A stretch of DNA of 64,000 nt from Fidelibacterota bacterium (GTDB taxonomy: Bacteria; Fidelibacterota; UBA8477; JABMPR01). The translations under genes were made by a program, and so were the position numbers. The notes under the pieces were generated by a model. That model made no database searches and was not told the DNA's origin. It worked only from the letters and a program-made list of their open reading frames with translations. This document shows, piece by piece, positions 11,439-54,493 of the stretch. Every line of letters starts with the position of its first letter. Positions within the stretch are counted from its first letter, which is position 1. The DNA is taken from NCBI GenBank assembly GCA_018650445.1, contig JABIFX010000160.1, forward strand, positions 37,052-101,051. The letters are read 5' to 3'.

Positions 11439-11481
11439 TCTAAAAATTTCTCCATAATCATTTATTTTTTAGCGGCGCCAA

Positions 11482-38439: not shown

Positions 38440-38443
38440 ATTA

Positions 38444-40213
38444 TTATCCTACTGTTTCCGATATCGCATCCGTATGGACAATATATAGGTCGTCAAGCTG
38501 ACTGCGAAATTGTTCGATGGCAGCTTTGCGGCGAAGCTTTAAAGCTGCAGTCAATAATCCGTTTGCAGGTGAAAAATGTTGATCACTTATATGGAAATAT
38601 TTGATCGTCTCAAATGAAGGCAGTGTATTATTGACCTGATCAACAGCTTTTTGAATCAGTTTGATCACTTCAGGTCGATTGACAATGCTTTTCCACTTGG
38701 CGGTGTCAGGGTCAAGAGCTTGGAATTTTTGGCGGATGAAATTTTCATTTAGCGTGATCAAGGCTACCAAGTATTTCTTCGCATCGCCATAAATGACTAT
38801 GTGCTCTATTTCGGGGTGATCGGTGAACTTTCTCTCGATATTCTGCGGGGCAATATTTTTCCCACCACTAGTGACGATGATATCCTTTTTACGATCAATT
38901 ATCTTCAGGAAGCGATCATCAATCCAGATGCCAAGATCTCCAGTCTGGAACCAGCCATCAGGAGTGAAGCAGGCTTTGGTTGCCTCTGGATCTTTGTAGT
39001 ATCCGCTAAAAATATTTGCACCTTTAGCCAGTATTTCACCATCTGTGGCAAGTTTTAATTGGACAGAAGGAAAGCGTTTGCCAACAGAATCAAAACGATA
39101 GTCGTCCTTATGGTTCATGGTTAAAGTGGGGGAGCATTCGCTGAGACCGTAGCCCTCAGTGATCCACATACCGGATTCCAGAAAAAATTCTTTGATCTCA
39201 GTTTTTAACCCAGCGCCCCCGGACAATAGAAAGTGTAAATTTCCACCTGTCAGCTCAATCAGTTTCTCAATTTGTTCATCTTTATCATTGCTACAGTTGA
39301 TGGCATTAAGAAACAGTTTTTCATAATAAGCCGGGACACTCATGAAGATGTCGGGTTTTAAAACTGTTAATAGTTCCAGAATATTGATGGGATTGGCCAG
39401 ATAACTTTCAAAACCAAATAGATTTCCAAGGCCTATGGCCCCCCAGCCATAGATATGAGAGTTGGGTAACCAATGAATATCAAGGACATCTTCGGGGATG
39501 AGTGAGCCATTGACCGTTAACCAGTCGCTGGTTGAGGTTGCCAGGTTTCGATGCGATAGCGGTACACCCTTTGGATCACCAGTGGTTCCCGAGGTATAAA
39601 TCATATAAGCAATGTCATCAAATTGCGGAATTCTTGCCAGATCCTCAATCAATCCGGGAGTGCTGTTAGTATGCGTTGCTCCTGCTTGTGAGAGTTCTTC
39701 AAAGCAATAAATTGGCAAGCTTGTCACACAATCTTTGGGGTCGCCCTGAAGCAGAATCAGCTGTCGTAACTTTGTGGATTCCAATCCAGCGGCTATAAGT
39801 CGATTCGCCATATCGACTGAATCGAGGATCAGAAGCTGCATATCTGAATGATTAATCATAAATAGAGACTGTTCGATGGTATTCCCGGCATAAATGGGAA
39901 CGAAAATTGCGGTCGAAGTCATGACCCCCAACGCAGAATAAATCCATTCGAGGGAGTTAGCAGCCAGAATGCCTATTTTATCGGGATAGCTGTAGCCCTG
40001 ACCGTGTAAAAATGTAGCCACCCCGGACACCTTGCGTCTATATGTATCCCATGTAATGGCTTCCCAACCGTGTTCGGTAGGGTTTCGCCAGCGGACTTTG
40101 TCTGACCATTGCTCAGCAGCTTGCATGAACAACTGGATTGAGGTTTGACCTTCAACCGCAGGTAAATATTGCATATATTTGAATATAAGGTACGTTTGAA
40201 AAATACAAAACAT
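38444..40213 (-). CDS. long-chain acyl-CoA ligase (AMP-forming)
   Basis: AMP-binding motif YTSGTTGDPKGV, plus GYGLSE, TGDLG and SGGKNI. The start may be the internal Met (MQYL...). Confidence 0.85.
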   Translation of the reverse strand: MFCIFQTYLIFKYMQYLPAVEGQTSIQLFMQAAEQWSDKVRWRNPTEHGWEAITWDTYRRKVSGVATFLHGQGYSYPDKIGILAANSLEWIYSALGVMTSTAIFVPIYAGNTIEQSLFMINHSDMQLLILDSVDMANRLIAAGLESTKLRQLILLQGDPKDCVTSLPIYCFEELSQAGATHTNSTPGLIEDLARIPQFDDIAYMIYTSGTTGDPKGVPLSHRNLATSTSDWLTVNGSLIPEDVLDIHWLPNSHIYGWGAIGLGNLFGFESYLANPINILELLTVLKPDIFMSVPAYYEKLFLNAINCSNDKDEQIEKLIELTGGNLHFLLSGGAGLKTEIKEFFLESGMWITEGYGLSECSPTLTMNHKDDYRFDSVGKRFPSVQLKLATDGEILAKGANIFSGYYKDPEATKACFTPDGWFQTGDLGIWIDDRFLKIIDRKKDIIVTSGGKNIAPQNIERKFTDHPEIEHIVIYGDAKKYLVALITLNENFIRQKFQALDPDTAKWKSIVNRPEVIKLIQKAVDQVNNTLPSFETIKYFHISDQHFSPANGLLTAALKLRRKAAIEQFRSQLDDLYIVHTDAISETVG

Positions 40214-40274
40214 TTATTTTTTACAGATATAGCATTCATGAAATACATTGGGTTTTCAAGAAGAAGAAGTCGAG

Positions 40275-40847
40275 TTATTTAGTATCAGATATTACTGAAT
40301 CAGCAGAAGTTTTATCTTTATTTGCTGACGGCCAGGGTCGCTGGCTTTCAGCTGCGATCCAGGCATGCACCCAGTCGGGCAATTCACCGCTCCAATGTTC
40401 ATTTGGAAATTCCTGCATGACTTCTGCAGCAGGAATCAAACCATTTTTTGATACAACACCAGCTTTAATAAGTGCTGAGGAGCAGATCGTTTCTCCCAGA
40501 CACATCTTCTGCATAAAATAGAACCAGCGTCCATCATGACCGATGACTTCGCTGTGCAATTGAAACTTTTTCCACAGGGTTATTCTACGACGGTAGCGAA
40601 TGCTGGAACCGCCCACAGCAAAGCCCCATTTCTTTTCTGAGATGAGCTTCATCAATCCGCCCCGAACTCCAAGATCATAACGCCCCAGGTCCATCAGGGT
40701 CAATTGCCGGCCGTTGTTAACCTCTCCATAGTGATCGATATCAAAGATTCCTGCACGGAGATTGAGAGTGCTGCTATCACCAAACTTCAGTGAGCTACGG
40801 TATTTGGCCGAGAGTATGGTTTTTATGGTTCTGAGATAGGGATACAT
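40275..40847 (-). CDS. hotdog-fold acyl-CoA thioesterase-like protein
   Basis: 190 aa. The ...DID.YGEVNNGR.LTLMDLGR... pattern resembles 4HBT_2-type thioesterases. Confidence 0.55.
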   Translation of the reverse strand: MYPYLRTIKTILSAKYRSSLKFGDSSTLNLRAGIFDIDHYGEVNNGRQLTLMDLGRYDLGVRGGLMKLISEKKWGFAVGGSSIRYRRRITLWKKFQLHSEVIGHDGRWFYFMQKMCLGETICSSALIKAGVVSKNGLIPAAEVMQEFPNEHWSGELPDWVHAWIAAESQRPWPSANKDKTSADSVISDTK

Positions 40848-40999
40848 GAAAGCTTCCTTTGTGAGAATTCCAGTTACTCAGACATGCTAATTCCTGGAAA
40901 CTGCTTCTCAAGAAATAAATAGGATCAATATTGATAAATTAGCTGAGATGATAAATCGAAAAGGAGCTTTTGAAGCATAAAAGTAGGAATCATCTATGC

Positions 41000-41500
41000 C
41001 TAAATCATTGCCAGCAGCTTATTCTTTTGCTTCTTGTACTCTTTTTCTGTGAGGAGTTGTCTGGTGAGCATCTGGTGCAAAGCTTCGATTTGCCCAATCA
41101 CCTCTTCAGTAGTGGCTTCCTGGGCATCTGGATTCATGGACATGCCAATCCGATTGAGGAGTGTCTTTTTGGCTCTTTCATAGTCTTTTTCACTTATCAC
41201 ACCGCGTGACATCATACGATTCAAGACAACAATATCTTCGGTCACAATTTCGGCTGTGATGGTAACCAGATTAGTTGGATAGGTGGTCGTCGATTGGGTG
41301 GTGACCATGACAGGTCTATAAGAATAGCGATAATATCCATATGCTGAATAGTAATTGTTGTAGCGATGGGGATAATAGGAATGATGATAGTTTCTGATAG
41401 GTCTGTGATGATGTCTTCTTGAACGGGGTCCCGCCTGGACAGTGACTGAAAAGATAAGTAAAAGGATTATAAGTTTACTAAATTTCATTTTGCACCTCAT
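41000..41500 (-). CDS. secreted protein with His/Tyr-rich low-complexity region and two SHOCT-like motifs
   Basis: Signal peptide (the MKFSKLIILLLIFSVTVQA start is probably Met5). RSRRHHHRPIRNYHHSYYPHRYNNYYSAYGYYRYSY, then GVISEKDYERAKKTLL and LLTEKEYKKQKNKLL. Confidence 0.6.
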   Translation of the reverse strand: MRCKMKFSKLIILLLIFSVTVQAGPRSRRHHHRPIRNYHHSYYPHRYNNYYSAYGYYRYSYRPVMVTTQSTTTYPTNLVTITAEIVTEDIVVLNRMMSRGVISEKDYERAKKTLLNRIGMSMNPDAQEATTEEVIGQIEALHQMLTRQLLTEKEYKKQKNKLLAMI

Positions 41501-41538
41501 TCTATTTAATCCCTTTGACCTTATAAGTTCCTGATTGG

Positions 41539-42348
41539 TTAATTTGGACCAAGCTCGAGACTGCTTTGGTAAGCTCGACGGGCAATATGAGCCCCCCCTA
41601 GAGCACCCACAGTTTGCGGGTTTTCAGGAATATTCAAAGTCAACCCCAACTTCTCCTCCAACAGCACAACCAGACCCCTATTATGAGCAACGCCTCCTGT
41701 CAGGGTCACTTCGCCTTCAATGCCAATACTGGCAACCATACTCCAGATTCGATTCACAATGGAACGTTGTAGACCGTGGACGATATGTTCACGTGGGGTA
41801 TGTTTGGCCAGGAGAGAAATGACTTCGCTCTCAGCAAATACGGTACAGGTACTGCTGATAGGAGCTGACTCTCCCTCGATATTCAAGGGGCTGCTCAATT
41901 CATCCAGGTCTAGTTCCAGACGATTGGCCATGACCTCAAGAAAGCGACCTGTCCCAGCGGCACATTTATCATTCATGGTAAAATCTAGCATACGACCATG
42001 TGAGTCGATTTGGATCACTTTGCTGTCCTGACCACCTATGTCTATCACCGTTCCCGTCTTGGGAAAGAGTTGATGAGCCCCGACCCCATGGCAACTGATC
42101 TCAGTCGTTTTTCCCGTGGCAAAAGCCACTGAAGCACGCCCATAACCCGTAGCAGTGATTGCTGTGATGACCTCCCTTGAGAGATCCGCCAGCTTTATAG
42201 CGGAGTCAAAAGCCACCTCAGCTGCTTCAGACCCATTTACGCCAGTGGGGATTACAGTTTCAGACAGGAGTTTTCCTGAATGGTCAATAATGGATACATC
42301 GGTGCTGAGAGAGCCTACATCCACACCGGCAAAATAGAGATCAGCCAT
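41539..42348 (-). CDS. BcrA/BadF/HgdC-type ATPase (activase of 2-hydroxyacyl-CoA dehydratase-like enzymes)
   Basis: GVDVGSLSTD, IDIGGQDSK and KCAAGTGRFLE. ATG 42348 overlaps the upstream stop (ATGGCTGA) and is preferred over the listed 42423. Confidence 0.85.
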   Translation of the reverse strand: MADLYFAGVDVGSLSTDVSIIDHSGKLLSETVIPTGVNGSEAAEVAFDSAIKLADLSREVITAITATGYGRASVAFATGKTTEISCHGVGAHQLFPKTGTVIDIGGQDSKVIQIDSHGRMLDFTMNDKCAAGTGRFLEVMANRLELDLDELSSPLNIEGESAPISSTCTVFAESEVISLLAKHTPREHIVHGLQRSIVNRIWSMVASIGIEGEVTLTGGVAHNRGLVVLLEEKLGLTLNIPENPQTVGALGGAHIARRAYQSSLELGPN

Positions 42349-43663
42349 GTTTTGATCCTTCCAGGGTTTCACAAAAAGCTTCAAGTCGAGTATGGATTTG
42401 CTGCTCTGACCAGACCCGTTCATCGGCTATGTCCGCATCCAGAATAACGGCAGGTAGATCAAGATCAGTAGTGATGGCTTTGCGTAGATCAAATTGGCCT
42501 ACAGAATAAGGTTTACAGCTTCGGGTTGAATGCATGACCATCCCATCCACTGAGTAAGTCTTGATCATCTTTTTCATCAGCTCAAGCCGATGTTTCAGGT
42601 TGTTGTTGAGGATGATCTGACCATAGGTTTTGGCCATCGAGTTCCAGGGATCTTTCACATTGAGATAACCTGTAGTTTCAGCCCAGGCATTGGTATAAGT
42701 AGCCGTCACAAAGTTCATTTTTCTTTCAGCAAAAAAAGTAGCTAAAAACCGAACTTTGTACCAGATGGCAATATTGTCCCAGATTAAGCGGTATCGTTCA
42801 TCACTTATTGCACCAATCCCCTGTGTAACACGAGTGTCGACCTCTTCCATCAAAATATGGTAGTAATCTTGTGCCACAGGTAAGCCGCGTAGGGAAACAA
42901 TGGGAGCAAGATGACCAAATGCATCAAAGATGGTCATGGGCGCAGGTTGAGCTTTCATAGCATCCAGGATAGCACCCCATGTCCGGGATGTTTCCATGGA
43001 GCGCTTGAGGATGTTCTCAAATACATCTAGATAAAAGACCCGTCCTGAAACCCGCTCGAGGATGGGAATCATATCTTGTAATTGCTGAGCCATATAATTG
43101 ATATCGGCTTCAGTCTGCTCAGTAGTAACAAAGGGTGCGTCAAAGTGAATCAAGGGAATATTCAGTTCATGGGCAATGGCTTTATACCAGTATAGGACGG
43201 TTTGACAGATATTGTTTGAACAAAACAGCAGATCTGGCTTGGGAAGCTTCCCAGCTGGTGTTTTCCCCGACAGCATGTGTCCCAGATCGATACGGGCATA
43301 GGAGCATAGATCCTGACTAAATCCACTCCCTTCAGCGATACTGCAGTAATCAGCACCCTGTTTTTTGGCTCCAACCAGGGCTGAGTGATTCTCCGGATAG
43401 ATAGTATAGAAATCAAAAGCGCGCAGGAGTTCCACGGGAGCACCACTGGTGACCCAGGCTACCTTATTTACACCCCGAGCATATCTGGAGAGGAAATAAT
43501 GACGACTGAGAATTTCTTTTAGGCGCTTATTGGAATCCAGGGGCGGTCCAAATGCTTCCGGAATAGGACGGGGTTTCCGTCTTTTGAAATCCTGAAGCGC
43601 CATGAGAGCGGGAGCTCCATAATCTTTCATGATTTTATATTTTATTTCTGCTCTGATACTCAT
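42341..43663 (-). CDS. 2-hydroxyacyl-CoA dehydratase family subunit (HgdA/BcrC-like)
   Basis: VAWVTSGAPVELLRAFDFYTIYPENHSA..., DLCSYAR and other conserved Cys. 440 aa. Confidence 0.75.
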   Translation of the reverse strand: MSIRAEIKYKIMKDYGAPALMALQDFKRRKPRPIPEAFGPPLDSNKRLKEILSRHYFLSRYARGVNKVAWVTSGAPVELLRAFDFYTIYPENHSALVGAKKQGADYCSIAEGSGFSQDLCSYARIDLGHMLSGKTPAGKLPKPDLLFCSNNICQTVLYWYKAIAHELNIPLIHFDAPFVTTEQTEADINYMAQQLQDMIPILERVSGRVFYLDVFENILKRSMETSRTWGAILDAMKAQPAPMTIFDAFGHLAPIVSLRGLPVAQDYYHILMEEVDTRVTQGIGAISDERYRLIWDNIAIWYKVRFLATFFAERKMNFVTATYTNAWAETTGYLNVKDPWNSMAKTYGQIILNNNLKHRLELMKKMIKTYSVDGMVMHSTRSCKPYSVGQFDLRKAITTDLDLPAVILDADIADERVWSEQQIHTRLEAFCETLEGSKHG

Positions 43664-44760
43664 GGCGAAACCATTTCAAATAGAAGTTCAGTAAACGCTT
43701 CAATACGTGTTTTGTCTTGTCCTGAGATGTGGTTCTCTAATTCTGTTTCCAGAGTTAAAACAGGATAATTTTTTCCCCGAAGGGTTTTCACCAGAAGACG
43801 ATGATCGAATAACTCAGGTTCACAGAATTTCACAATATCAAAGAGTATTCCTTGAGCCTGACTTGCATTCATATGTTTACTTAGATGGTGCAAGCGTTCA
43901 TCCAGATCACCCCCACGCGTGGAGCAAGGTGGTAAGATGAAGAATCGATCAGTTAAGTAATCCAGTGGTGACACAGGAGCATCCATAGGAAACTTGGGAA
44001 TGCGTCGACTACCGGCTAGTAAGTCATCTGCTACGATGCTTACCCCCAATTCATCGAGAAACTCCAGTATCTCTGGAGTGGGTGGCAGGATGCCTGACAC
44101 CATCATTCGGGCTCTTGGAGATTCACCTGGTTGATCCAGAATATCTACCTGCTCAAGCAGGCTCAAATAATCAGTGGGGAGCAGGTACTCCTGAGCTCGC
44201 ATGAGCTTGAAATACTCTGCATTATTCAAAGACAGGTGATCTGTCATACGGGCTTGTTGGATTGCCATTAGATGTGAGTCTATTTTATGGCTCAATACAC
44301 AGGCAGCCAGGAATTTATCCGGAGCTAAAGGTCCATAGACTGCTTCCATGGATAATTGGAAATTTTGGAGGATATCCCGGTAATATCTGGTTGTTGTATT
44401 GTTAAAACTGCCCTTTGGATTGTAAAAGGTGTAAACAGGGAGGGACACACCGATGAGATCCTTGACCTGAGTCCCCAGGTTTTGCAGAGAATCACAAGTA
44501 TGGGGGAAGAGATATCCCGCATTGATGATATCAGGCTCCTTGAGGATAAACTCCAGACTTCTTTTTACGATGGGGCAAATGGTGGTCTGCAGATGTGCAT
44601 TGGCGTGGAGAATTTCTCCGGGTGGATCCCAGATTTCAGCAGCATGAATATCGAAAGCCCAGAGTAGCTCTCTTGGATAGAGCGCAGGCAACACTCCCAT
44701 GATCTTTTGACCGGAATTAGCCAGTGCCTTTAGATATTCTTTTCGATTCGGGATCATCAT
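43660..44760 (-). CDS. 2-hydroxyacyl-CoA dehydratase family subunit (HgdB/BadD-like)
   Basis: GVLPALYPRELLWAFDIHAAEIW, TICPIV and PHTCDSLQN. 366 aa. 4-nt overlap with the partner subunit. Confidence 0.75.
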   Translation of the reverse strand: MMIPNRKEYLKALANSGQKIMGVLPALYPRELLWAFDIHAAEIWDPPGEILHANAHLQTTICPIVKRSLEFILKEPDIINAGYLFPHTCDSLQNLGTQVKDLIGVSLPVYTFYNPKGSFNNTTTRYYRDILQNFQLSMEAVYGPLAPDKFLAACVLSHKIDSHLMAIQQARMTDHLSLNNAEYFKLMRAQEYLLPTDYLSLLEQVDILDQPGESPRARMMVSGILPPTPEILEFLDELGVSIVADDLLAGSRRIPKFPMDAPVSPLDYLTDRFFILPPCSTRGGDLDERLHHLSKHMNASQAQGILFDIVKFCEPELFDHRLLVKTLRGKNYPVLTLETELENHISGQDKTRIEAFTELLFEMVSP

Positions 44761-44905
44761 TTATTATAACTCAATCAAAATAGCTGTCAACTTTAGTTGG
44801 TAAATGTTAGATGTATTAGTTCACACCTTAAAACCGTTTAAACGGTATGTCAAAATAGATGTCCCTCTGTACTACCTGACTGAAGTCAGGTGCTGCAGAT
44901 GAAAC

Positions 44906-46291
44906 TTATTTTCTGAACTTTCGGACAAAACCTTCTACCTCGGGTACGCCACCTTGATAAACAAGATAACCATTATATGGTTCTCGCTCAGTCATATCAT
45001 CATTAATCGGCCTAAGCATTATCGCTTTGATTTTATCAGGATCATCTGTTTGTCCGAGCGCCCAGCCCAACTTAACCCAGGCCACCTCAGGCAGCATATT
45101 TCCCAGGGGGGTCACGCCCAGAGCCATCATATCACGACCGGTATCATAGACAAACATGTGAGCATAACCCCAGATTGTCTGGAGGGTCATAAAGACAGAA
45201 ACACCCTTGTCTCGTGCTCTTTCCAGGGCTGGATACAGCTCCTTGTTGACATGACCAAGACCGGTTCCTACAATAACAATTCCCCGATATCCTGCATCAA
45301 CCAGTGAATCGACAATGTCAGGCTTCATGTGGGGATAGTAGTAGAGCATGGTGACGTTCTCGTTGAAGGTGGGAATAATTTTTACCTCCTTGTCCTTGCG
45401 GCGATGTTTGTATTCCGTTTTGATAATCCTGAGACCATCACGAGTCACCGTCGCAGCTGGAGTATCACCAATGGTGCGGAAGGTTGACCTGTAAGAACTA
45501 TGCATTTTCCTAACACGAGTTCCGCGATGTAGAAAACCGTATTCATCAGAAGTGGGACCAAACATGCATACCAGCGTCTCTGCGATATCACCATGCCCGG
45601 CAGCATATGAGGCATGGATCAAATTCAGAGCTGCGTCTGAAGAGGGTCGATCGGAGGAGCGCTGTGATCCTACAAGAATGATGGGGATGGGCGAATCCTG
45701 AACCATAAAGGAAAGGGCAGCTGCCGTATGATGCAAGGTGTCTGTCCCATGGCCGATCACAATACCATCTGTACCGTTGGCAATTTCCTTACCAATACTT
45801 TCTGCCAGGATCTTGTATTGATCAGGACCCATATTTTCGCTAAAAACAGCAAATAGTTTTTCTGTATCGATGTTACAAATATCAGCCAACTCAGGAACCG
45901 CACCATACAACTCACCAGGAGAAAAGGCGGGGATAACTGCCCCCGTTCGATAATCCAGACGGGACGCAATAGTTCCACCGGTACCAAATAGTTTCACATT
46001 TGGTTTATCATCTGAATAAGGGAAAGCTTTTTCGGGAATTTTGTAATTGGCTTTTTGATACCCTGTTTCAACCATTTTTTTAATAGTCACAATATCAATA
46101 CCAATATTATAACCGGTTTGAATCTTCAAGACGATATGCTGATCATCATCATTTTCTGAGCGGGGGAGAACTGTGCCATCAAAGGTGCCCCTGGTTGTGT
46201 GGATTTCAGCCTGACCCCAGACTCTCACGCTGAATTTCTTCAGTGTAGCGAGAGCAGCACCCCTGTAGCCTTGAAAGATGTCATCACTCAT
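44906..46291 (-). CDS. gatD: archaeal-type Glu-tRNA(Gln) amidotransferase subunit D (asparaginase-like)
   Basis: A ~90-aa N-terminal domain followed by an asparaginase fold with GTGGTIASRLDYRTGAV, GHGTDTLHHTAAALSF, VGSQRSSDRPSSDA, HRGTRVRKMHSS, GTGLGHV and VYDTGRDM...LPEVAWVKLGWALGQTDD. Colinear with methanogen GatD. Confidence 0.85.
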   Translation of the reverse strand: MSDDIFQGYRGAALATLKKFSVRVWGQAEIHTTRGTFDGTVLPRSENDDDQHIVLKIQTGYNIGIDIVTIKKMVETGYQKANYKIPEKAFPYSDDKPNVKLFGTGGTIASRLDYRTGAVIPAFSPGELYGAVPELADICNIDTEKLFAVFSENMGPDQYKILAESIGKEIANGTDGIVIGHGTDTLHHTAAALSFMVQDSPIPIILVGSQRSSDRPSSDAALNLIHASYAAGHGDIAETLVCMFGPTSDEYGFLHRGTRVRKMHSSYRSTFRTIGDTPAATVTRDGLRIIKTEYKHRRKDKEVKIIPTFNENVTMLYYYPHMKPDIVDSLVDAGYRGIVIVGTGLGHVNKELYPALERARDKGVSVFMTLQTIWGYAHMFVYDTGRDMMALGVTPLGNMLPEVAWVKLGWALGQTDDPDKIKAIMLRPINDDMTEREPYNGYLVYQGGVPEVEGFVRKFRK

Positions 46292-48296
46292 TCTCTTGTC
46301 CCTCTTGAAATGACTGGTTCTCTTCTTTTAATTTCTGCTCAATTTCAGCATGCAACTCAGATAATGCCACATTCCCGATGGCCTGATGATGTATCTGACC
46401 CATGAGCCAGTTGATGTCGTCACCCGGCTCAGGTTTGGAAGTGTTCGCTTGGTATTTTTCGTAAAGGAATGCTATGGAAGCAGTGATTTCAGTCATGTCG
46501 CGTTGCCTGAAATGGATACTGGTGAGAACGGAGCTAAACTGCATATCTGGGAACTCGTATATCACAGGCATCATATATTTGGCAATACCTGGCTCCAGTT
46601 TCTTCTCCTTGATATAGCGAAACAGCTCATAGATCTTTTCATAGAAGAAGTTTTTATGTAACTCACATTTACCCTCAATGTTTTTGAAAGTATGTCCCAG
46701 GAAAGAACCAATAAACTTATGAGTATAGCCATGATCCTTACAAATATTTTCGATAAGGGGAATCATGTTTTTACTCAGGAGGTACTTCCAGGTGTCTTCA
46801 GGGATGCCCCACTTTTTCATCTGTGCATAGCGATCTGCAATATCCAGAGGTAAATCTTTCCCAAGACTCTCGATAAACTCAACTGTTAGTGGGATAGGTG
46901 CAGAATCTGTGTCGGGGTACATACGATCACTTCCAGGGAGAACTCTTTCAAAAATAGTGGTACCATCTGAAAATGATTTCCGCGTTTCTTCAGGGACCCC
47001 TTCAAAAGCCATTCTGACTCTCTCTTCCACAGTTTCCAGGGCAGTTGGGATATCCTCTGCTGGTCCCCAGAGAATGATCTGAGCATCGTTTTTCTTGGCC
47101 CCCAGCCACTTGGATATTTTGCCTAACTCCTTATCGCTCAGGAGGGGGTCAAAACTTTCAGAATGAGTCATGTTGGTTCGTTCAATACAGGCAATCACCT
47201 TCAGGCGATGACCTATCTCATGGGCAAAATTGTGCCCGGGCTGCATGAAGTGAGAAAGAATCCCCCGGAACTTGGGGAGATTTATGGCGATGACTTTCAT
47301 TCTCCGGTTCAGCTTTTCTCTGAGGGGCGTTGCCAGTAGCTCTGGCATGGATAAATCGATTTCCTTATGGCTCATTTTCCATTTGTTGAGCTGAATACTA
47401 CGTTCATGAATGATCTTTTTAATATGTAGAAGTGCCCACTGTCGGAATGCTTCATTATGCGAGAGTTCAGGGATCCATTTGTTGTGGGCGACACCTTTTA
47501 TTTCAACCCGGCTACCACCAGCACAACTCACATTAACATCTTCGCGACCAGCTCCCATCCCAGTACGCACTTTGCCAGTGCTGCGATTCAAAAATCGTAT
47601 GTATTCTGCAGCTTCTGCCAGTTCATCTGGCGTGGTCATATCAGGGTGAGTTACGGTTTCGATGAGAGGCATGCCAAGCCGATCAGTTTTGTAAATTCGC
47701 TCATGCCCAATATCAGATATTTCACGACAGGAATCCTCTTCAATACTGAGTTGAATCAGACGTACTTTCTTGTTTTTAAGTTGAATCTCACCCTCAACAC
47801 CAAGAATGGCTGTCCTTTGGAAACCGGTTGGGATACTACCATCCAGGTATTGTTTGCGGGTGATGTGAACTTCACCGACGATATTCAACTTGGAGAGCAG
47901 TGATATTTTAATAGCAATCTCCAAGGCTTCCGGATCAATGTGAAAAGGGGGAGTATCATCGACTTCGTAGGTGCAGGCGTTCTGATTATTGAGTCGATAG
48001 GTGATGTTTTTACGCGTCTTGAATTCCATGAGGGCCGTACCATCATATTCACCCAGCTCGCTCAATGTGGGACGCATATGACGGATGACTTCAGCGTCAA
48101 ATTCATCATCAGAATGATAGATACCTGCCGGGCAACGACAAAACAGTTTGCTTTTAGTTTTTAGCTGCTGATGGACTTCCAGTCCTGATTTGAAGCCAAT
48201 CCTTTTATAATCTTTAGCACTGGCTTTATGGCGCTCCACATAACCGATAGCTTTGCGGGTCGTCTTGTAATTTTTGTATGCTTCAGCTTGTTTCAT
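46284..48296 (-). CDS. gatE: archaeal-type Glu-tRNA(Gln) amidotransferase subunit E
   Basis: GLEVHQQLKTKSKLFCRCP cradle start. A GatE-specific insertion ends in GVPEETRKSFSDGTTIFERVLPGSDRMYPDTDSAPIP. A C-terminal helical tail reads INWLMGQI. About 670 aa, against about 480 for GatB. ATG 48296 is preferred to TTG 48305. ATGAGTGA overlap with gatD. Confidence 0.85.
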   Translation of the reverse strand: MKQAEAYKNYKTTRKAIGYVERHKASAKDYKRIGFKSGLEVHQQLKTKSKLFCRCPAGIYHSDDEFDAEVIRHMRPTLSELGEYDGTALMEFKTRKNITYRLNNQNACTYEVDDTPPFHIDPEALEIAIKISLLSKLNIVGEVHITRKQYLDGSIPTGFQRTAILGVEGEIQLKNKKVRLIQLSIEEDSCREISDIGHERIYKTDRLGMPLIETVTHPDMTTPDELAEAAEYIRFLNRSTGKVRTGMGAGREDVNVSCAGGSRVEIKGVAHNKWIPELSHNEAFRQWALLHIKKIIHERSIQLNKWKMSHKEIDLSMPELLATPLREKLNRRMKVIAINLPKFRGILSHFMQPGHNFAHEIGHRLKVIACIERTNMTHSESFDPLLSDKELGKISKWLGAKKNDAQIILWGPAEDIPTALETVEERVRMAFEGVPEETRKSFSDGTTIFERVLPGSDRMYPDTDSAPIPLTVEFIESLGKDLPLDIADRYAQMKKWGIPEDTWKYLLSKNMIPLIENICKDHGYTHKFIGSFLGHTFKNIEGKCELHKNFFYEKIYELFRYIKEKKLEPGIAKYMMPVIYEFPDMQFSSVLTSIHFRQRDMTEITASIAFLYEKYQANTSKPEPGDDINWLMGQIHHQAIGNVALSELHAEIEQKLKEENQSFQEGQENE

Positions 48297-48531
48297 CTTC
48301 ACCAATTATTTCATTACAGAACTCAACAAGGAGTGTTATTAATATTGTATCAATCAAAGCATGGATAATGCCAGTCGGTCACTTTATAAGAATTGAAACA
48401 AGATAAGGTATCAGAGCATAAGTGCAATTTGAGTTATGGTAATTGAGATTAACCGATGCATCCAATTCTATTAGGTCTATCTTATTTAGCGTTAACAGTA
48501 ACAATTAATCAATAATAATTGAGAAACCCAA

Positions 48532-51500
48532 ATGACCGATCTAGAGCATACTGAATCGCCATCAAACTATAACCTCAGATTTATCAGTCTCATCATATTA
48601 ACGCTTTTTTTGTGCTCTGGAATGACCGGTTTATTATACGAAGTCATCTGGTCCAGGATGATTGTCAAAGTAATTGGAGCCGCTCCCTTTGCCATCAGTA
48701 TTGTGCTCACCGTCTTCATGGGAGGCTTGGGATTGGGGAGTTACCTGGCAGGAAGATATATTGACCGGATTCAAAAATCCTCACAACTTCTCCAATTATA
48801 TGGTCTGCTGGAAATAGGTATAGGACTTTATGCCTTCATCCTTCCAGGCGTAATTGGAGCAAGTCAGTCATTTTTTAGCACCATCTACAATCAATCTTCA
48901 GGTCACTTACTATTATTCAACACCTTTATCATGCTGGGAGCTTTTGTCCTCTTCATAATCCCCGTGACCCTCATGGGCGCCACCCTGCCAATTCTAATTC
49001 GATTTTATGTGGCGAATCTTGGTCATCTCGGTGCCCGGGTTGGTCGGTTATATGCCATCAATACAATTGGAGCTGCGCTTGGCTCCGTTTTGAGTGGCTT
49101 CTTTTTAATCAAATTGTGGGGAGTTGACGGTACACTAAGATTTGCAGTTGTTATGAACTTTCTGATTGGGGGGATCTCATTTTTTGTAGCCAATCAGATT
49201 GCCAAACGATCAATTTTGAGTGAGAATGATACCGTAGATACAGAACAGGTCGCTGGTGTTTCTGAAATAGATAGCGGTATTCATTATTCCCACTCACATC
49301 AGGTAGCCGCCCTCATAATTTTCGCCGTGTCAGGTTTTGCCGCCATGGCCTATGAAGTGATCTGGACCAGATTGCTGGGTCTAATTATTGGGCCAACGAC
49401 TTATTCATTCACGATTGTACTTACTACCTTCATTGTGGGTCTAGCTCTGGGAGCGATGTTCTTTGGATGGTTAGCTGACCGAAGCAAGCATCCTTTCCGA
49501 CTCCTTCTCATTACCCAGGTGAGTGCAGCCATTCTTGCTCTCATCGTGAGTCAATTCCTGGGGAACAGTCAACTTTTCTTCGCCAAGCTGATCTATAGTT
49601 TCAAAGATGATTTCATTATGCTCTCGATTGCCAAAGCCATGCTACTGTTTCTTGTGTTGCTGGGACCTACCATTGCATTGGGGGCTACGTTTCCACTGGT
49701 AGGTAAGATCTACACCAGCTCTATAAAACAGTTGGGGAAATCTATTGGATTTGCATATGCAATTAACACGATTGGGGCATTACTGGGATCCTTTTCGGCC
49801 GGTTTTATTCTGATCCCCCTGCTCGGGAAAGAGACCAGCCTGAGTCTGGTAATAGGCATCCAGCTTGTTACCGTGCTCATTGTTGTTGGATTTCTTAACC
49901 CGGAGAAGGCTAAATTAAGAAATAGACTTTTTGTTGGAATCTGTTTCCTGGGATTGCTGCTCACGCTTTTACTCCCAAACTGGGATAGACAACAACTGGC
50001 GACAGGCAAATACTATCGATTCAGCAATCTTGCTGACTTGTTTGATAGAACAAGCTGGTGGGATATTCTGGTTAAACATCCCCGGGAATTTCTACCAAAT
50101 TCCAGCGGAACAGAGGTCGTGTTTTATGGGGATGGTGTTGGTGGATTTACCACCGTGGAGAAAGACATCGATCCCTTTGGCAAAACGCAATACATTCTGT
50201 ATAACAGCGGTAAAGCGGATGCGTCAACTGAGTCAGATATGGCAACACAAACTCTTTTAACTCATTTGCCTTTATTGTTTCACCCTGAACCAAAAAGTAT
50301 GATGATTCTAGGTCTAGCCAGTGGGGTCACCGCAGGGGAAGCCCTATACTATGATCTTGATCAACTGGATATTCTTGAAATCAGTGAACAGGTAGTCGAA
50401 GCCAGTCATTTCTTTAGCGAATCAAATAGTGATGTTCTCTCGCACCCCACAACCAATGTGATTATTCAAGACGGTCGTGCCCATCTCGAATTGAGTGATC
50501 AATCATATGATGTTATTACATCGGAACCATCAAATCCATGGATGGCCGGTTTGGCGAATTTATTTACCGAAGAGTTTTTCAAATTGGTTAAAAACAGATT
50601 GAACTGGGATGGAGTTTTTGTTCAGTGGTTACCATCCTATCAGATGGATTGGACGACTTTTTCAATGGTGGGGAGAACTTTTGCAAAGGTCTTTCCAAAT
50701 AGCCTGTTGATGAAATCGACTATTGGGGGCAATGACTATTTATTGCTTGGGTTTAAGGGTCTTGAGCAGCTATCCCTTAAAAATGCCATCAAAAATTTGC
50801 CGCAGCTTCAAAAATCACCAAATCTGATTGTGGAAGATCCCCGGTTATTGTACCGCCTTATTGTGAGTGACAATCTACCGGCACTTTTTGGGTCAGGTCC
50901 AGGACATTCTGATAATTACCCCGTTCTCGAATTTCTGGCACCCCAACGCATGCATCTGGTTGAAGATACTGTAGAGAAAACGCTTGCTGCAAGACGAACA
51001 CTTAGCGATGAGATTATTGATGTCATGCGAGAGATCCTGGATGTTGAAGGACAGATTAATTTCGCACGTTTTGTGCTTTCGGTATATTCGCCGTTCCTGG
51101 AGATGGTCGATCTCTCAAAAGCAACAGAGGAACAGGAGGCTCAATACATTGAGATGTTGCTGGATTATAGCAAAAACAATATTATTGAATCTTACGAAAT
51201 ATTTGAGGAAGCGGCACTTAAGGATACCGCCCTTCAAATACAAATAGAGGTACTCAAGGAGAAATTACCTGAGCTTCCCAATCGGTTAAACTCCAGTATC
51301 TTACTAGCAAACGCTTATGCCCAACAGGGTGATTTTAATGAAGCCATCAAATATTGTCAGCTTGTCGTCGAATTAGGCGACGATCCCATAGAAGCGAACC
51401 TCAATTTGGGGTTGTTCTGTATGAATGCAAATCGCAATGAAGAAGCTATCATCGCATATGAAGAAGTGTTAAACCTGGAGCCTCAAAACAGTCAAGCCCA

Positions 51501-52245
51501 CAATAACTTAGGGACACTTTTCGAGCAGGCCGGCCAGCTAAAACGTGCACAATCTTTTTATGAAAAAGCCATTCAAATCGATCCAGACCTGGCCATGTCT
51601 CACTTCAACCTGGCTCGTCTATATGTTGGGGATGGTAGACTGGATTCTGCCCTGATGTCTTATCAGAAAACAATTCAATTGGATCCGGAATACGTACCGG
51701 CCTATTATCGAATTAGCCAGCTTTATCAGATGACAGGAGATATTGACAAGGCTATTGCAACTCTGGAAAAGCTTATCAAAATTCGACCTGATTTACAAGA
51801 AGCCCAGTTTGAATTAAAGAGACTTGCCATGCCGAAGGATCAACCAAAAGTTTCGGTTCAGATGCCTCCACGTACCGCAGAATCAGATAAAAGTACCGAT
51901 CCAAGATACTACTATAATCAGGCTATCATGCTGATCCAGAAGGAGAAATATAAAGAAGCGATTGTAGATTTTGAGAAGGCGATTTCCCTGAAGCCAGATT
52001 ACTTGAATGCGCTTATTGGTCTGGGAGCCATGTATCAGAATCTACGCGACTACCAGGCAGCCATCAAAACTTACAATAAAGCGCTGGCTATTGATCCAAA
52101 TCATAGCGGAACCCACAATAACATGGCTATTAATTATTATTCGATCCGACAATATAAACTGGCTATTGAGCATATAGATAAGGCCCAAACATTGGGTTAT
52201 AAAGTGCAGCAGGCCTTTTTAGATGAATTGTCACAATATCGATAG
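48532..52245 (+). CDS. fused polytopic membrane domain / spermidine-synthase-like domain / TPR-repeat protein
   Basis: About 14 TM helices in two blocks. A spermidine-synthase-like core (ILGLASGVTAGE, DVITSEPSNPWMAG). At least 8 TPR units at the C-terminus (AYYRISQLYQMTGDIDKAI...). Confidence 0.8.
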   Translation: MTDLEHTESPSNYNLRFISLIILTLFLCSGMTGLLYEVIWSRMIVKVIGAAPFAISIVLTVFMGGLGLGSYLAGRYIDRIQKSSQLLQLYGLLEIGIGLYAFILPGVIGASQSFFSTIYNQSSGHLLLFNTFIMLGAFVLFIIPVTLMGATLPILIRFYVANLGHLGARVGRLYAINTIGAALGSVLSGFFLIKLWGVDGTLRFAVVMNFLIGGISFFVANQIAKRSILSENDTVDTEQVAGVSEIDSGIHYSHSHQVAALIIFAVSGFAAMAYEVIWTRLLGLIIGPTTYSFTIVLTTFIVGLALGAMFFGWLADRSKHPFRLLLITQVSAAILALIVSQFLGNSQLFFAKLIYSFKDDFIMLSIAKAMLLFLVLLGPTIALGATFPLVGKIYTSSIKQLGKSIGFAYAINTIGALLGSFSAGFILIPLLGKETSLSLVIGIQLVTVLIVVGFLNPEKAKLRNRLFVGICFLGLLLTLLLPNWDRQQLATGKYYRFSNLADLFDRTSWWDILVKHPREFLPNSSGTEVVFYGDGVGGFTTVEKDIDPFGKTQYILYNSGKADASTESDMATQTLLTHLPLLFHPEPKSMMILGLASGVTAGEALYYDLDQLDILEISEQVVEASHFFSESNSDVLSHPTTNVIIQDGRAHLELSDQSYDVITSEPSNPWMAGLANLFTEEFFKLVKNRLNWDGVFVQWLPSYQMDWTTFSMVGRTFAKVFPNSLLMKSTIGGNDYLLLGFKGLEQLSLKNAIKNLPQLQKSPNLIVEDPRLLYRLIVSDNLPALFGSGPGHSDNYPVLEFLAPQRMHLVEDTVEKTLAARRTLSDEIIDVMREILDVEGQINFARFVLSVYSPFLEMVDLSKATEEQEAQYIEMLLDYSKNNIIESYEIFEEAALKDTALQIQIEVLKEKLPELPNRLNSSILLANAYAQQGDFNEAIKYCQLVVELGDDPIEANLNLGLFCMNANRNEEAIIAYEEVLNLEPQNSQAHNNLGTLFEQAGQLKRAQSFYEKAIQIDPDLAMSHFNLARLYVGDGRLDSALMSYQKTIQLDPEYVPAYYRISQLYQMTGDIDKAIATLEKLIKIRPDLQEAQFELKRLAMPKDQPKVSVQMPPRTAESDKSTDPRYYYNQAIMLIQKEKYKEAIVDFEKAISLKPDYLNALIGLGAMYQNLRDYQAAIKTYNKALAIDPNHSGTHNNMAINYYSIRQYKLAIEHIDKAQTLGYKVQQAFLDELSQYR

Positions 52246-52531: not shown

Positions 52532-54121
52532 TTACGAATTTAGATAAACAAATTTACCGGCATAAACTCTATTGCCGGATTTTACTGAAATGATCATGAG
52601 CTGACTTGCCAGACCCAGACGGGAGGGGATGGATATTTTAATGATTCGTCTGGATTCCTGAGTCATGCTCAGAGCCGCAACTTCCCTTCCCTGAATATCA
52701 TAGAGAATGGCCAGTTCGGGCAGCGCAGAGACTGGATCTGAGAGTATCATGCGGATCTCTCCAGCTTGTCCTGGATTTGGGTAAACCAGACAATGCTTAG
52801 AGTTATCAGCTTTCCACTTGGGAAAAAGACTTGTTAGATCAGGGATACCCCAGCCATATGAATTGTCGGGACTAGATGCCTGATCCCCATGGTTCTGAAA
52901 AATAGAAATAACTGAATCAGGGGATAGGTGCGGCTGGGCTTGGAGCAGCAGGGCCGCCAGTCCTGCAATTTGCGGAGCCGAAAAGGAAGTTCCATTTCCT
53001 CTAATATACCCATTCGTTCCAGAAGCCATGTAGACCAGACTACCCTGAGCAACTACATTGGGTTTGATGCGCCCATCATAGGTTGGTCCACGACCGGAAA
53101 AATTTGAGATTTCTTGCTGGGAATTAACAGAGCCAACTGACAATACATGGGGACTGTCAGAAGGTGGCCAGATGCTACTGGCAGCGGAGCCTTCATTCCC
53201 GGCTGAATTCACAACCAGAATACCCCGTGCAGCAGCAATATTGGCTGCCCGGGCACTAATGGTGGTCTGTCCATCCAAAGCTGATATTGGATAATCCTCA
53301 TTGGGGTCATCAAAACCCTGAAAGTAACTTAGGGAGCTGTTAATGATATCTACACCCAGTGAATCAGCCCATTCCATAGCCGCCACCCAATTGTCCTCCT
53401 CAGCCCGTGATTCACTGTATGTATCCTCGGTTCGAGCAAGGAGATAGCTGGCTTTATAGGCAGGACCGATTAACTCTCCGGGATAATGGCCACCCAGGGC
53501 ACTGAGGACATTGATTCCGTGTCCATCTCCTGGTCCTGAGGCATCGACCTCCTGATCGATAAAATCATATTGGGCTTCAACATCAATTCCCTCGAAAGCG
53601 GGATGATCGGTGAGGAATCCCGTATCAAATACACCGATAAGAACACCGGACCCATCATAGCCTAGATCGTGGATCTGGGGAATATTCAACATCTCGTTTT
53701 GACCAGCAGATGCTCCATAGGACAGGGCAGATCCTCGTGGAAGTGAAGTGGTCTGAAAAGTTTCTTCATCTCTTTCGGCAGGAGAACGACGGACGGGAGC
53801 GGTTGATTTTACAAAAGTAAAGTTTTCTAGTGCTGAGAGCTGAACATCATTTTCAATGCTCACACTCACTGCATTGAGGAATCGTGAGGCGTGTCTGATT
53901 CGATACCCTGCAGCTCGTAATTGTGCCAGTTGAGATTCTGAGACAGCCATATTTCCTGAAGCATTTGGTGAGCCACGTTGCCGAAGTCTCTCGATTGCAC
54001 GCGGGGTCAATTGCACCGGTGTGGAGCTGGGGTCGGACTCAAGAAAAACCCACAGAGGTGTTTCACCAGCACTTAATGTACTGACGATGAAAAAGAGTAG
54101 AATGAAGCGTTTGAACAACAT
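52532..54121 (-). CDS. S8 (subtilisin-like) serine protease with T9SS-type C-terminal domain
   Basis: Triad contexts GVFDTGF, DGHGINV and GNGTSFSAPQ. The C-terminus reads CLVYPNPGQ...YDIQGREV...GKFVYLNS. Confidence 0.85.
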   Translation of the reverse strand: MLFKRFILLFFIVSTLSAGETPLWVFLESDPSSTPVQLTPRAIERLRQRGSPNASGNMAVSESQLAQLRAAGYRIRHASRFLNAVSVSIENDVQLSALENFTFVKSTAPVRRSPAERDEETFQTTSLPRGSALSYGASAGQNEMLNIPQIHDLGYDGSGVLIGVFDTGFLTDHPAFEGIDVEAQYDFIDQEVDASGPGDGHGINVLSALGGHYPGELIGPAYKASYLLARTEDTYSESRAEEDNWVAAMEWADSLGVDIINSSLSYFQGFDDPNEDYPISALDGQTTISARAANIAAARGILVVNSAGNEGSAASSIWPPSDSPHVLSVGSVNSQQEISNFSGRGPTYDGRIKPNVVAQGSLVYMASGTNGYIRGNGTSFSAPQIAGLAALLLQAQPHLSPDSVISIFQNHGDQASSPDNSYGWGIPDLTSLFPKWKADNSKHCLVYPNPGQAGEIRMILSDPVSALPELAILYDIQGREVAALSMTQESRRIIKISIPSRLGLASQLMIISVKSGNRVYAGKFVYLNS

Positions 54122-54493
54122 GGCCTAAAACTACAAGAAGATAGAGGTTTAAGAACATATCTTTTGTTTTAATGGAAAATCGAAACTCTTGGAAAAAATG
54201 GTCCTGGCCTGTATTCACTTATTCAGTTGTATTGTTGGAGAAGCAATATGTTGTCTCCAATATCCGACATTACTCAGAACTGAGCAATATTTAATTAACA
54301 AATAAGGTTGCCAGACCTGTGTTGATCGTGTACATAAAGACAGTATAAACAATAGCATGTGAAATATCACTGCTGCTGGCACGACCTTTGACATAAATTA
54401 CAGAAATAATAAGAAGATCGATTTACCATATTAAATTGATTTGCTGGAACCGAGCTATTATAATTTGAGGAAATATTGTCGAGGAGCTTTGCC

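Follow-up and report, generated by a model that had tools for sequence, protein, structure and literature searches.

A 64,000-nt stretch of DNA (the window) from a marine bacterium of the Neomarinimicrobiota (now Fidelibacterota; SAR406/Marinimicrobia) carries two genes, gatE and gatD, which probably encode a functional GatDE-type tRNA-dependent amidotransferase of a bacterial clade that most likely arose by one old transfer from archaea. The two products are members of the GatE and GatD families and keep their active sites and fold, the host is bacterial, related pairs are widely spread among bacteria and both genes are under purifying selection. GatDE has been held in reviews to be confined to archaea; the pair described here belongs to a large bacterial GatDE clade that extends over many phyla.

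Gene pair and subunit identity

Both open reading frames described in the sequence-only reading are present on the minus strand (Table 1), and all the motifs quoted there were found in the translations (GTGGTIAS, GHGTDT, VGSQRSSDRPSSDA, LPEVAWVKLGWALGQTDD, GLEVHQQL...LFCRCP and GVPEETRK...RMYPDTD), the motif and family match of both frames lying far beyond chance. The gatE frame reaches a TTG at 48305 (46284..48305, 673 aa), and its true start is likely the downstream ATG; the resulting 670-aa product equals database protein P0001 in length and sequence. The stop/start overlap of the two genes was likewise read in the sequence, with ...GAG AAT GAG TGA running over ATG AGT GAT GAC, and at group A loci the gatE-gatD gap has a median of -1 nt. 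No convincing minus-strand sigma-70-type site was detected between gatE and the divergent gene upstream. The spacer behind gatD holds the sigma-70-type consensus TTGACA-16-TATAAT at 44790-44763 (12/12 matches) ahead of the HGD-D genes, suggesting that the latter form a separate transcription unit.

Table 1. Features of the gatE-gatD locus (positions in the window)
Feature	Position	Strand	Description
gatE	46284..48296	minus	670 aa from ATG at 48296; putative tRNA-dependent kinase/transamidase subunit
gatD	44906..46291	minus	461 aa; putative asparaginase-type glutaminase subunit
gatE stop / gatD start overlap ATGAGTGA	46284..46291	minus	read directly; translational coupling
AspRS-like insertion domain, GatE-specific	47001..47402	minus	about aa 299-432
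GatE C-terminal helical and tail region	46290..46883	minus	about aa 472-669; diverges from YqeY-like tail
Intergenic region, gatE / divergent 1237-aa gene	48297..48531	no strand	presumed gatED promoter region
Downstream boundary of gatD	44761..44905	minus	145-nt spacer with short hairpin and sigma-70-type consensus, then HGD-D genes

The competing identity would be that of a standard type I asparaginase adjoining a bacterial GatB, and GatD does score above the type I subfamily threshold (TIGR00519, 360.7 vs 260.5 bits), because it belongs to the type I asparaginase superfamily. However, GatD scored much higher on the GatD equivalogs TIGR02153 (483.4 bits, cut-off 324) and NF003217 (482.9 bits, cut-off 310), and it carries a GatD_N domain (PF18195, aa 30-70, 44 bits vs threshold 25.7) ahead of the asparaginase N (aa 98-291) and C (aa 312-425) domains. 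Its match to archaeal 2D6F_A, aligned from residue 8, reached 381 bits, against at most 126 for plain asparaginases. With its gene coupled to gatE as well, GatD is more than a plain asparaginase, as had been claimed. Catalytic sites of GatD were matched to those of the Mth enzyme by alignment position. T107, T183, D184 and K262 are invariant among 122 bacterial GatD, in line with the scheme of a Thr nucleophile and a Thr-Asp-Lys triad (PMC2330236).

GatE passed both of its own curated NCBI profiles, TIGR00134 with 400.1 bits (cut-off 319.55) and NF003107 with 467.4 bits (cut-off 456), the margin over the latter equivalog cut-off being small (11 bits), whereas every GatB model failed, none exceeding 126.5 bits where the cut-offs are 315 or higher (best model, 126.5 vs 338). 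The cradle domain was recovered by PF02934 (E 1.4e-45), the best PDB matches were by a wide margin the archaeal GatE chains 2D6F_C and 1ZQ1_C, and H42, E186 and E213, corresponding to the Mg2+ ligands His15, Glu157 and Glu184 of Mth GatE (PMC2330236), are invariant among 151 bacterial GatE.

GatE also contains an insertion domain that is absent from GatB. Pfam GatB_N, a 277-position model, covers aa 40-479 with a break of roughly 160 aa; a weak GAD match falls at aa 329-416, and structure searches of the insertion gave faint AspRS fold matches. The insertion region measures 143-149 aa in all bacterial GatE, compared with 136 in M. thermautotrophicus. In the AF2 model of GatE (pLDDT 90.4) it forms an alpha/beta domain with pLDDT >90 and lies inside the superposition on 1ZQ1_C/2D6F (TMt 0.82-0.83, rmsd 4.1-4.6 A, vs about 8-10 A for GatB). 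Foldseek matched the model to 1ZQ1_C with E 2.2e-46 and TMt 0.83, a result stronger than that for GatB by at least 20 orders of magnitude in E-value. The modelled fold thus bears out the proposed GatE architecture, insertion included, and the asparaginase-GatB identity was rejected as having virtually no chance of being right.

The C-terminal region of GatE is all-helical, confidently modelled and of archaeal-like length, but Pfam found no GatB_Yqey/YqeY match in it, whereas archaeal GatE does match. The tail motif MG.VM...RG[KR]..G, common to GatB, archaeal GatE and most bacterial GatE, becomes W.MGQ.H.QA.GN in the subclade of the window.

Bacterial host, distribution and origin

The bacterial character that the sequence-only reading gave to the neighbourhood holds for the genes of HtpG, of a TonB-dependent receptor bearing a CarboxypepD_reg domain, of a protein with a C-terminal T9SS sorting domain and of an EgtB-like product. 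The unbroken codon and GC style that it described by eye was also recovered numerically, with GC of 0.461/0.443 for the two genes (window 0.451 +/- 0.024) and GC3 of 0.429/0.455 (window 0.429 +/- 0.030). The order gatE-gatD-hgdB-hgdA is kept in 12 independent MAG loci, ten of them labelled Neomarinimicrobiota and 11 with the activase gene. The pair is strongly conserved and under purifying selection, with dN/dS of 0.015-0.065 overall (0.036-0.065 for gatE, 0.015-0.025 for gatD). Synteny, native codon usage and these dN/dS values together show that the pair is no chimera and did not arrive recently. Of the three conditions that the sequence-only reading set for a refutation, none was borne out, synteny in the 12 MAGs serving in place of read mapping. 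That an archaeal contig was mis-joined, that the bacterial bin is contaminated or that the pair was acquired very recently, a suspicion prompted by the archaeal-only description in reviews and for which we found no supporting data, can hence be dismissed with near certainty: the same gene order recurs with bacterial flanks in the MAGs above, relatives lie on bacterial chromosomes that are complete and on contigs of Mb scale, and the closest relatives are bacterial, the archaeal enzymes being only 30-38% identical.

Counted at species level, at least about 300 bacterial genomes encode a gatE-gatD operon, complete chromosomes among them; they are labelled, among others, as Bacteroidales, Ignavibacteria, Aminicenantes, Cloacimonetes, Phycisphaerae and Myxococcota. 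Among 160 related bacterial loci, gatD is present in 142 and no GatB paralog was found at any, and the divergences of GatD and GatE are correlated (r = 0.91). The earlier statement that GatDE is regarded as an archaeal signature is accurate, since reviews to 2022 describe it as archaea-only or as an 'archaeal signature protein', and we found no paper describing bacterial GatDE in the literature, in which the reviews considered run to 2022. The description 'restricted to Archaea' nevertheless fails with the host of the window and the other genomes being bacterial. Membership of GatE and GatD stands all the same, because the archaeal restriction is a distribution statement of reviews and not a biochemical criterion.

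In neighbour-joining trees on corrected p-distances (not maximum likelihood), bacterial GatE formed one clade, with bootstrap support of 99.5% in the unrooted tree and of 95% when GatB served as the root. In the GatB-rooted tree this clade nests inside archaeal GatE, which is paraphyletic (9%), and Asgard GatE takes the sister position with only 26% support. The nesting favours one old archaea-to-bacteria transfer, which is the most likely origin of the bacterial clade, its direction and age being inferred. The subclade of the window has its other members mainly in Bacteroidales, suggesting a further transfer within the FCB group. Of the origins proposed earlier, a lineage-wide feature of this phylum and a transfer from archaea thus merge into one story, although the scope had been drawn too narrowly, with many phyla concerned.

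The remaining proposal was that a GatDE-like pair had been repurposed for another amidation. In one form of it the amidation would be non-translational, the pair working for example with the genes that follow it, which are 2-hydroxyacyl-CoA-dehydratase-like, CoA-ligase and thioesterase genes. The conserved gatE-gatD-hgdB-hgdA-activase order in Neomarinimicrobiota-type relatives and the divergent tail motif would agree with it, but gatE and gatD alone are shared among the 160 bacterial loci and the HGD genes are lineage-specific, the spacer with its perfect promoter consensus parts gatD from these genes, and strong purifying selection preserves both the kinase ligands and the complete tRNA-handling layout of cradle, insertion and helical tail. 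We therefore consider this form of repurposing highly improbable.

tRNA context and proposed function

The function of the pair would most likely be the amidation of Glu-tRNA(Gln). If the pair works as its archaeal homologue does, GatD would hydrolyse glutamine or asparagine by means of its Thr nucleophile and Thr-Asp-Lys triad, a glutaminase activity that in the GatD family depends on bound Glu-tRNA(Gln), and the ammonia would pass to GatE through an internal tunnel of a presumed GatDE complex. Genomic support for such a complex comes from the gene overlap, the presence of gatD at 142 of 160 loci and the correlated divergence of the two subunits (r = 0.91). GatE would bind the acceptor end of Glu-tRNA(Gln), its predicted substrate, phosphorylate the gamma-carboxyl of the glutamate with ATP and Mg2+ held by H42, E186 and E213, and amidate the phosphorylated glutamate to give Gln-tRNA(Gln). 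The two genes are inherited as a coupled two-gene operon. An ORF cluster lies directly upstream of gatE at five loci from several phyla, and its tested member (L084) is a glutamine synthetase; at a sixth locus a Pfam-annotated glutamine synthetase lies between gatD and gatE. This neighbourhood fits a glutamine-dependent amidation role.

In archaeal tRNA(Gln) the base pair read by GatDE is A1-U72. The tRNA(Gln) of bacteria carries U1-A72 instead, and it is this pair that bacterial GatCAB reads; recognition by bacterial GatDE must consequently have changed. In the GatE family a YqeY-like tail binds the tRNA D-loop, and the conserved motif of the tail is the one rewritten in the subclade of the window. 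Genuine GlnRS co-occurs with GatDE in three bacteria (at L140 and L107 on the same contig, and in MAG CAYVBQ01), so that Gln-tRNA(Gln) does not depend there on GatDE alone. Taken together, GlnRS co-occurrence and the rewritten motif make a changed substrate specificity possible. A search of 2.1 Mb of related loci yielded no tRNA-Gln gene, and a tRNA-Asn with U1-A72 is present at one GatDE-bearing locus (L028).

In bacterial GatDE as a whole, or at least in this subclade, the specificity of the same chemistry might accordingly have shifted to Asp-tRNA(Asn) or widened to accept it beside Glu-tRNA(Gln), with GatDE taking over the job of GatCAB or providing tRNA-dependent Asn/Gln synthesis beside GlnRS. 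GatCAB picks out tRNA(Asn) by elements similar to the U1-A72 of tRNA(Gln), and a GatDE re-tuned to U1-A72 could therefore accept both; moreover, GatCAB is known to be retained by bacteria that possess GlnRS as well as AsnRS (PMC4206432). Against this, the insertion domain, modelled to clash with ND-AspRS, is fully retained, the active-site residues are unchanged, and the GlnRS-bearing members belong to group A outside the subclade of the window rather than to its own lineage. We judge such a shift unlikely. In a tentative form of the proposal, bacterial GatDE, notably in the Bacteroidales/Neomarinimicrobiota subclade, might be tuned to U1-A72 and act on Asp-tRNA(Asn) alone or together with Glu-tRNA(Gln), replacing GatCAB or running beside GlnRS as a nitrogen-status-linked route to amide amino acids; the link to nitrogen status would be suggested by the glnA-gatE-gatD clusters.

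A bacterial GatDE clade bears on several wider questions. It has been proposed that archaea never gained GlnRS because GatDE co-evolved with their unusual tRNA(Gln). A large bacterial clade would mean that the enzyme can work, or can be re-tuned to work, with bacterial tRNAs, and the natural coexistence of GatDE and GlnRS offers a test bed for this barrier hypothesis. A further question is whether GatDE was already present in LUCA or originated within archaea; the nesting of the bacterial clade inside archaeal diversity favours transfer. For MAGs of the FCB group, Planctomycetota, Acidobacteriota and Myxococcota, annotation and metabolic reconstruction by GatCAB and GlnRS only may misjudge the synthesis of Gln-tRNA and possibly Asn-tRNA, and 'archaeal marker' filters may wrongly call GatDE-bearing bacterial contigs contamination.

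Comparison with known amidotransferases and asparaginases

Archaeal GatDE (Methanothermobacter thermautotrophicus 2D6F; Pyrococcus abyssi 1ZQ1) has the same two subunits in the same domain order as the window pair: GatD_N followed by asparaginase N and C in GatD, and cradle, AspRS-like insertion and helical tail in GatE. Both active sites are conserved, with Thr/Thr-Asp-Lys in GatD and His/Glu/Glu as the Mg ligands in GatE; sequence identity is only 44% (GatD) and 34% (GatE). Unlike the archaeal enzyme, the window pair belongs to a bacterial host and its genes are joined in an overlapping operon. The window GatE, but not archaeal GatE, has about 28 extra N-terminal residues with helices modelled at aa 3-16 and 27-33; it also differs in the YqeY-type tail, which escapes Pfam, and in the replaced RG[KR] motif. 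The host tRNA(Gln) is expected from established knowledge to carry U1-A72, as opposed to A1-U72 in archaea, and some bacterial GatDE members coexist with GlnRS, whereas archaea are reported to be without it.

Bacterial GatCAB, the enzyme normally expected in bacteria, acts on mischarged tRNA by the same three chemical steps, and GatB and GatE are paralogs with the cradle domain and C-terminal tail in common. Its glutaminase is, however, an amidase-type GatA with GatC, whereas the window pair uses an asparaginase-type GatD and no GatC. Type I L-asparaginase (AnsA family) shares catalytic fold and residues with GatD, but is without GatD_N, while GatD is set apart by its scores on the GatD equivalogs and by its constant pairing and co-evolution with GatE.

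Identity of the gatE-gatD pair

The sequence-only reading had taken two overlapping minus-strand genes for an archaeal-type GatD/GatE pair in a bacterial locus, and all the motifs that it quoted were found in the translations of the two ORFs. Translation of gatE most likely begins at the ATG at 48296. The product then has 670 aa, as does a database protein of 100% identity. The gatE stop and the gatD start both lie within ATGAGTGA (46284-46291), where GAG AAT GAG TGA of gatE is read over ATG AGT GAT GAC of gatD.

The 461-aa protein scored 483 bits on both GatD equivalog HMMs (cut-offs 324 and 310), and the 670-aa protein scored 467 bits on NF003107 (cut-off 456) and 400 bits on TIGR00134 (cut-off 319.6), against no more than 126.5 bits on any GatB model (cut-offs of 315 or higher). 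Pfam analysis revealed GatD_N and both asparaginase domains in GatD; in GatE a long insertion, itself giving a weak GAD-domain match, splits the GatB/E catalytic domain. Among solved structures, the M. thermautotrophicus (2D6F) and P. abyssi (1ZQ1) GatD and GatE matched best, with scores far above those of plain asparaginases and GatB chains. The Thr nucleophile and Thr-Asp-Lys triad of GatD (T107, T183, D184 and K262) are invariant among 122 bacterial GatD sequences, as are the Mg2+ ligands of GatE (H42, E186 and E213) among 151 bacterial GatE sequences; in archaeal GatE, mutation of a Mg2+ ligand abolishes kinase and transamidase activity (PMC2330236).

An AlphaFold2 model of GatE built from a 66-sequence alignment (pLDDT 90.4, pTM 0.86) superseded an earlier prediction from a shallow alignment (pLDDT 69, cradle domain poor). 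It matched 1ZQ1_C (E 2.2e-46, target TM 0.83, rmsd 4.1 A) and 2D6F, with GatB chains far behind (best E 7e-24, rmsd ~8-10 A). The insertion region is likewise present, spanning 143-149 aa in every bacterial member. An asparaginase paired with a GatB, the identity that would have overturned the initial assignment, is ruled out by the HMM cut-offs, the domain content and the fold match of the model. The observation is confirmed and its interpretation supported: we hold it nearly certain that the two genes give a bacterium a genuine and functional GatDE, and the pair is filed as a bacterial member of the GatDE family.

Bacterial context and distribution of gatED

The closest GatE relatives (76-93% identity) belong to MAGs of Candidatus Neomarinimicrobiota, a phylum of the FCB group now named Fidelibacterota at NCBI. 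The order gatE-gatD-hgdB-hgdA, in which the last two are the HGD-D family genes, is common to 12 independent MAG loci (10 labelled Neomarinimicrobiota), the activase gene being retained in 11; the HGD-D pair accompanies gatD in these 12 Neomarinimicrobiota-type relatives and not elsewhere. The divergent 1237-aa gene is also present in eight of the closest relatives, with 64-88% protein identity in the closest MAGs.

Features of the window around gatE and gatD
Feature	Position	Strand	Remarks
gatE ORF	46284..48305	minus	673 aa counted from TTG
gatD ORF	44906..46291	minus	461 aa
Two HGD-D family genes	43660-44760, 42341-43663	minus	directly downstream of gatD
Sigma-70 consensus, perfect (TTGACA, 16 nt, TATAAT)	44763-44790	minus	spacer between gatD and first HGD-D gene
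BcrAD/BadFG-type activase	41539-42423	minus	after HGD-D genes
SHOCT-domain protein, thioesterase, AMP-binding ligase, alpha/beta hydrolase, KAS III-like enzyme	region 36060-44760	minus	after activase
1237-aa protein	48532-52245	plus	divergent from gatE; MFS-like membrane region, spermidine-synthase-like domain, long TPR array
Two S8 subtilases (one with C-terminal FlgD-Ig-like domain) and T9SS C-terminal sorting-domain protein	52532-54121 (-), 54476-57571 (+), 60980-62722 (+)		

The HGD-D pair and activase look like a 2-hydroxyacyl-CoA dehydratase or a benzoyl-CoA-reductase-like system. A functional link between this system and gatED was judged unlikely, the neighbourhood being lineage-specific and a consensus promoter standing in the spacer. 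The subtilases and T9SS protein point to a secreted-protease locus beside the region.

The bacterial character ascribed to the neighbourhood was borne out by the typing of HtpG, a TonB-dependent receptor with a CarboxypepD_reg domain, a T9SS sorting-domain protein and an EgtB-like protein elsewhere in the window. The impression that codon and GC style does not break from the flanks also held, as both genes fall inside the spread of the window in GC, GC3 and codon usage. Comparison with five orthologs gave dN/dS values of 0.036-0.065 for gatE and 0.015-0.025 for gatD. A chimeric or contaminant contig is ruled out by the synteny in 12 MAG loci, by relatives on complete bacterial chromosomes and by the native codon usage; chimera, contamination and recent arrival can all be set aside. 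None of the three outcomes named as refuting the initial reading was seen, as far as these could be checked.

GatE proteins of 58-73% identity, with gatD nearly always directly downstream, were found in many Bacteroidales, Marinilabiliales and Rikenellaceae MAGs, two complete chromosomes among them, and also in MAGs with the labels Aminicenantes and Chlorobiota. When cluster representatives were searched exhaustively, an additional tier appeared (~40-53% identity), bridging the gap from the window's clade to the canonical archaeal enzymes (30-38%). When one genome per GTDB species was scanned with two motifs specific to this tier, at least about 300 genomes matched. The best 80 loci all carried bacterial labels (Fermentibacteria, Aegiribacteria, Krumholzibacteriota, Cloacimonetes, Calditrichota, Aminicenantes, another Acidobacteriota MAG, Ignavibacteria, Melioribacteraceae, Kapaibacterium, Chlorobiota, Rhodothermaceae, other Bacteroidota, Phycisphaerae, other Planctomycetota and Myxococcota), and complete chromosomes and contigs >1 Mb were among them. 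GatDE is not peculiar to Neomarinimicrobiota/Fidelibacterota.

The only genes common to the 160 bacterial loci are gatE and gatD, the latter present in 142 with a median gatE-gatD gap of -1 nt. Pairwise identities of GatD and GatE correlate with r = 0.91, indicating that the pair moves as a unit. On two complete Bacteroidales chromosomes (L049, OY764079.1; L052, OY781965.2) gatE stands alone at 9977-11956, with no gatD within 10 kb; gatD presumably lies elsewhere, or was lost. In L049 a CNNM/CorC-family gene and a SurA-like PPIase gene lie 3' of the lone gatE, matched in size and position by ORFs of L052, and IS transposases lie upstream.

Origin of the bacterial GatE clade

In an unrooted neighbour-joining tree of 87 GatE sequences, 99.5% bootstrap supported the separation of the bacterial clade (group A) from an archaeal group that holds 2D6F and 1ZQ1 along with proteins under the labels Asgard, Bathyarchaeia and Thermoprotei. 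When the tree was rooted with three GatB sequences over 416 shared columns, group A was monophyletic in 95% of replicates and the archaeal sequences in only 9%, which places the root within archaea with the bacterial clade nested. Long-branch attraction would draw a fast-evolving bacterial clade toward the outgroup, and the placement of group A is the opposite of this expectation. Its sister in the neighbour-joining tree, with only 26% support, is a clade in which Heimdallarchaeota and other Asgard archaea make up most of the named members. On these distance trees, we read the history as a single old transfer from archaea to bacteria and a long stay there since.

Several FCB phyla group together within group A, a pattern consistent with vertical descent. 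For deep group A representatives, cluster records gave four organism names, three of them bacterial or unassigned 'bacterium' labels and the fourth 'Deltaproteobacteria bacterium'. The window's subclade, a long branch with 100% bootstrap in the neighbour-joining tree, is a mixture of Bacteroidales, Neomarinimicrobiota and some other labels, Neomarinimicrobiota being sister to a Bacteroidales sequence (78%), which is consistent with later transfer between members of the FCB group. Another Neomarinimicrobiota MAG (L095, JAOZSR010000084.1, 6001-7890) carries a second GatE type, which groups with Cloacimonetes/Calditrichota apart from the window's subclade; the phylum thus has two lineages of GatDE.

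One GatE inside the bacterial clade comes from a 5.16 Mb chromosome, CP070751.1 (L161, 3717581-3739518), labelled 'Thermoplasmata archaeon', and groups with the representative P0132 (98.5% bootstrap). Such a size is unusual for Thermoplasmata, so the label may be wrong, or the gene may have been transferred back to an archaeon.

Function, tRNA recognition and comparison with archaeal GatDE

By the mechanism described for archaeal GatDE, GatD would free ammonia from Gln or Asn, and GatE would phosphorylate and then amidate the glutamate on tRNA(Gln) (PMC2330236, PMC9499178). This mechanism is argued for by the conserved active sites, the two-subunit tunnel-coupled architecture and the strong purifying selection. 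The chemistry is probably the known one, and we favour, with reasonable confidence, Glu-tRNA(Gln) amidation as the job of the window's GatDE.

At six loci of group A, gatED is linked to a glutamine synthetase gene: five (L084, L086, L087, L115 and L158, from several phyla) share one ORF cluster immediately upstream of gatE and in the same orientation, of which the tested member, in L084 (3581-4957), is a type I GlnA, and in L161 a Pfam-annotated glutamine synthetase gene (8239-9753) lies between gatD and gatE. This linkage fits a glutamine-consuming amidation. A separate upstream-ORF cluster in five loci (L081, L082, L085, L093 and L112) gave, for its tested member L082, an NtrC-family sigma-54 regulator; together these neighbours hint that GatDE is tied to nitrogen status.

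Archaea have GatDE because they lack GlnRS. A genuine GlnRS gene is found on the same contig as gatED in one Bacteroidota and one Myxococcota MAG (TIGR00440 716-743 bits, cut-off 426), and a Melioribacter MAG holds both genes. Such co-occurrence leaves room for a shift to Asp-tRNA(Asn) or a dual specificity, which we regard as a real, if unlikely, alternative. So does tRNA recognition, which must have changed, as archaeal GatDE reads A1-U72 and bacterial tRNA(Gln) has U1-A72 (PMC2330236). The tail motif MG.VM...RG[KR]..[DN]G is common to GatB and most archaeal GatE, and its RG[RK] core is kept in most of group A; the window's subclade has W.MGQ.H.QA.GN in place of the motif, and the YqeY tail is no longer detected by Pfam, which likewise leaves room for that alternative. 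Amidation of Glu-tRNA(Gln) remains the favoured reading.

No tRNA-Gln, GluRS or GatB turned up in the vicinity of gatED across 161 related loci (2.1 Mb). The search gave only two other tRNAs, a tRNA-Glu(CUC) in L102 and, in L028, a tRNA-Asn with U1-A72. The former (5760-5834, plus strand), 166 nt upstream of gatE, is of ordinary bacterial type (G1-C72, large D-loop), and the adjacency looks coincidental. Neomarinimicrobiota GlnRS exists (L241, P0402) with few relatives, and GatDE-bearing Neomarinimicrobiota assemblies were absent among the matches listed for GlnRS probes from L140 and L241. GlnRS genes ~63-70% identical to a bacterial GlnRS are filed under Thermoplasmata, Methanosarcinales and Thorarchaeota MAGs (L311, JAGGSL010000109.1; P0432; P0500); GlnRS is reported absent from archaea (PMC9499178), and these records could be binning contamination or real transfers.

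No description of bacterial GatDE was found in the full-text literature searched, in which most subscription journals are missing. The sequences themselves are not new to public annotation, where these bacterial proteins already go by the names GatD and GatE; the bacterial clade and its implications appear undescribed. Reviews of 2008, 2021 and 2022 (including PMC2330236 and PMC9499178) present GatDE as an archaeal signature protein found in archaea only. The distribution reported here contradicts that standard statement, and the bacterial enzymes provide cases in which the working of GatDE with bacterial tRNAs, and alongside GlnRS, can be put to the test.
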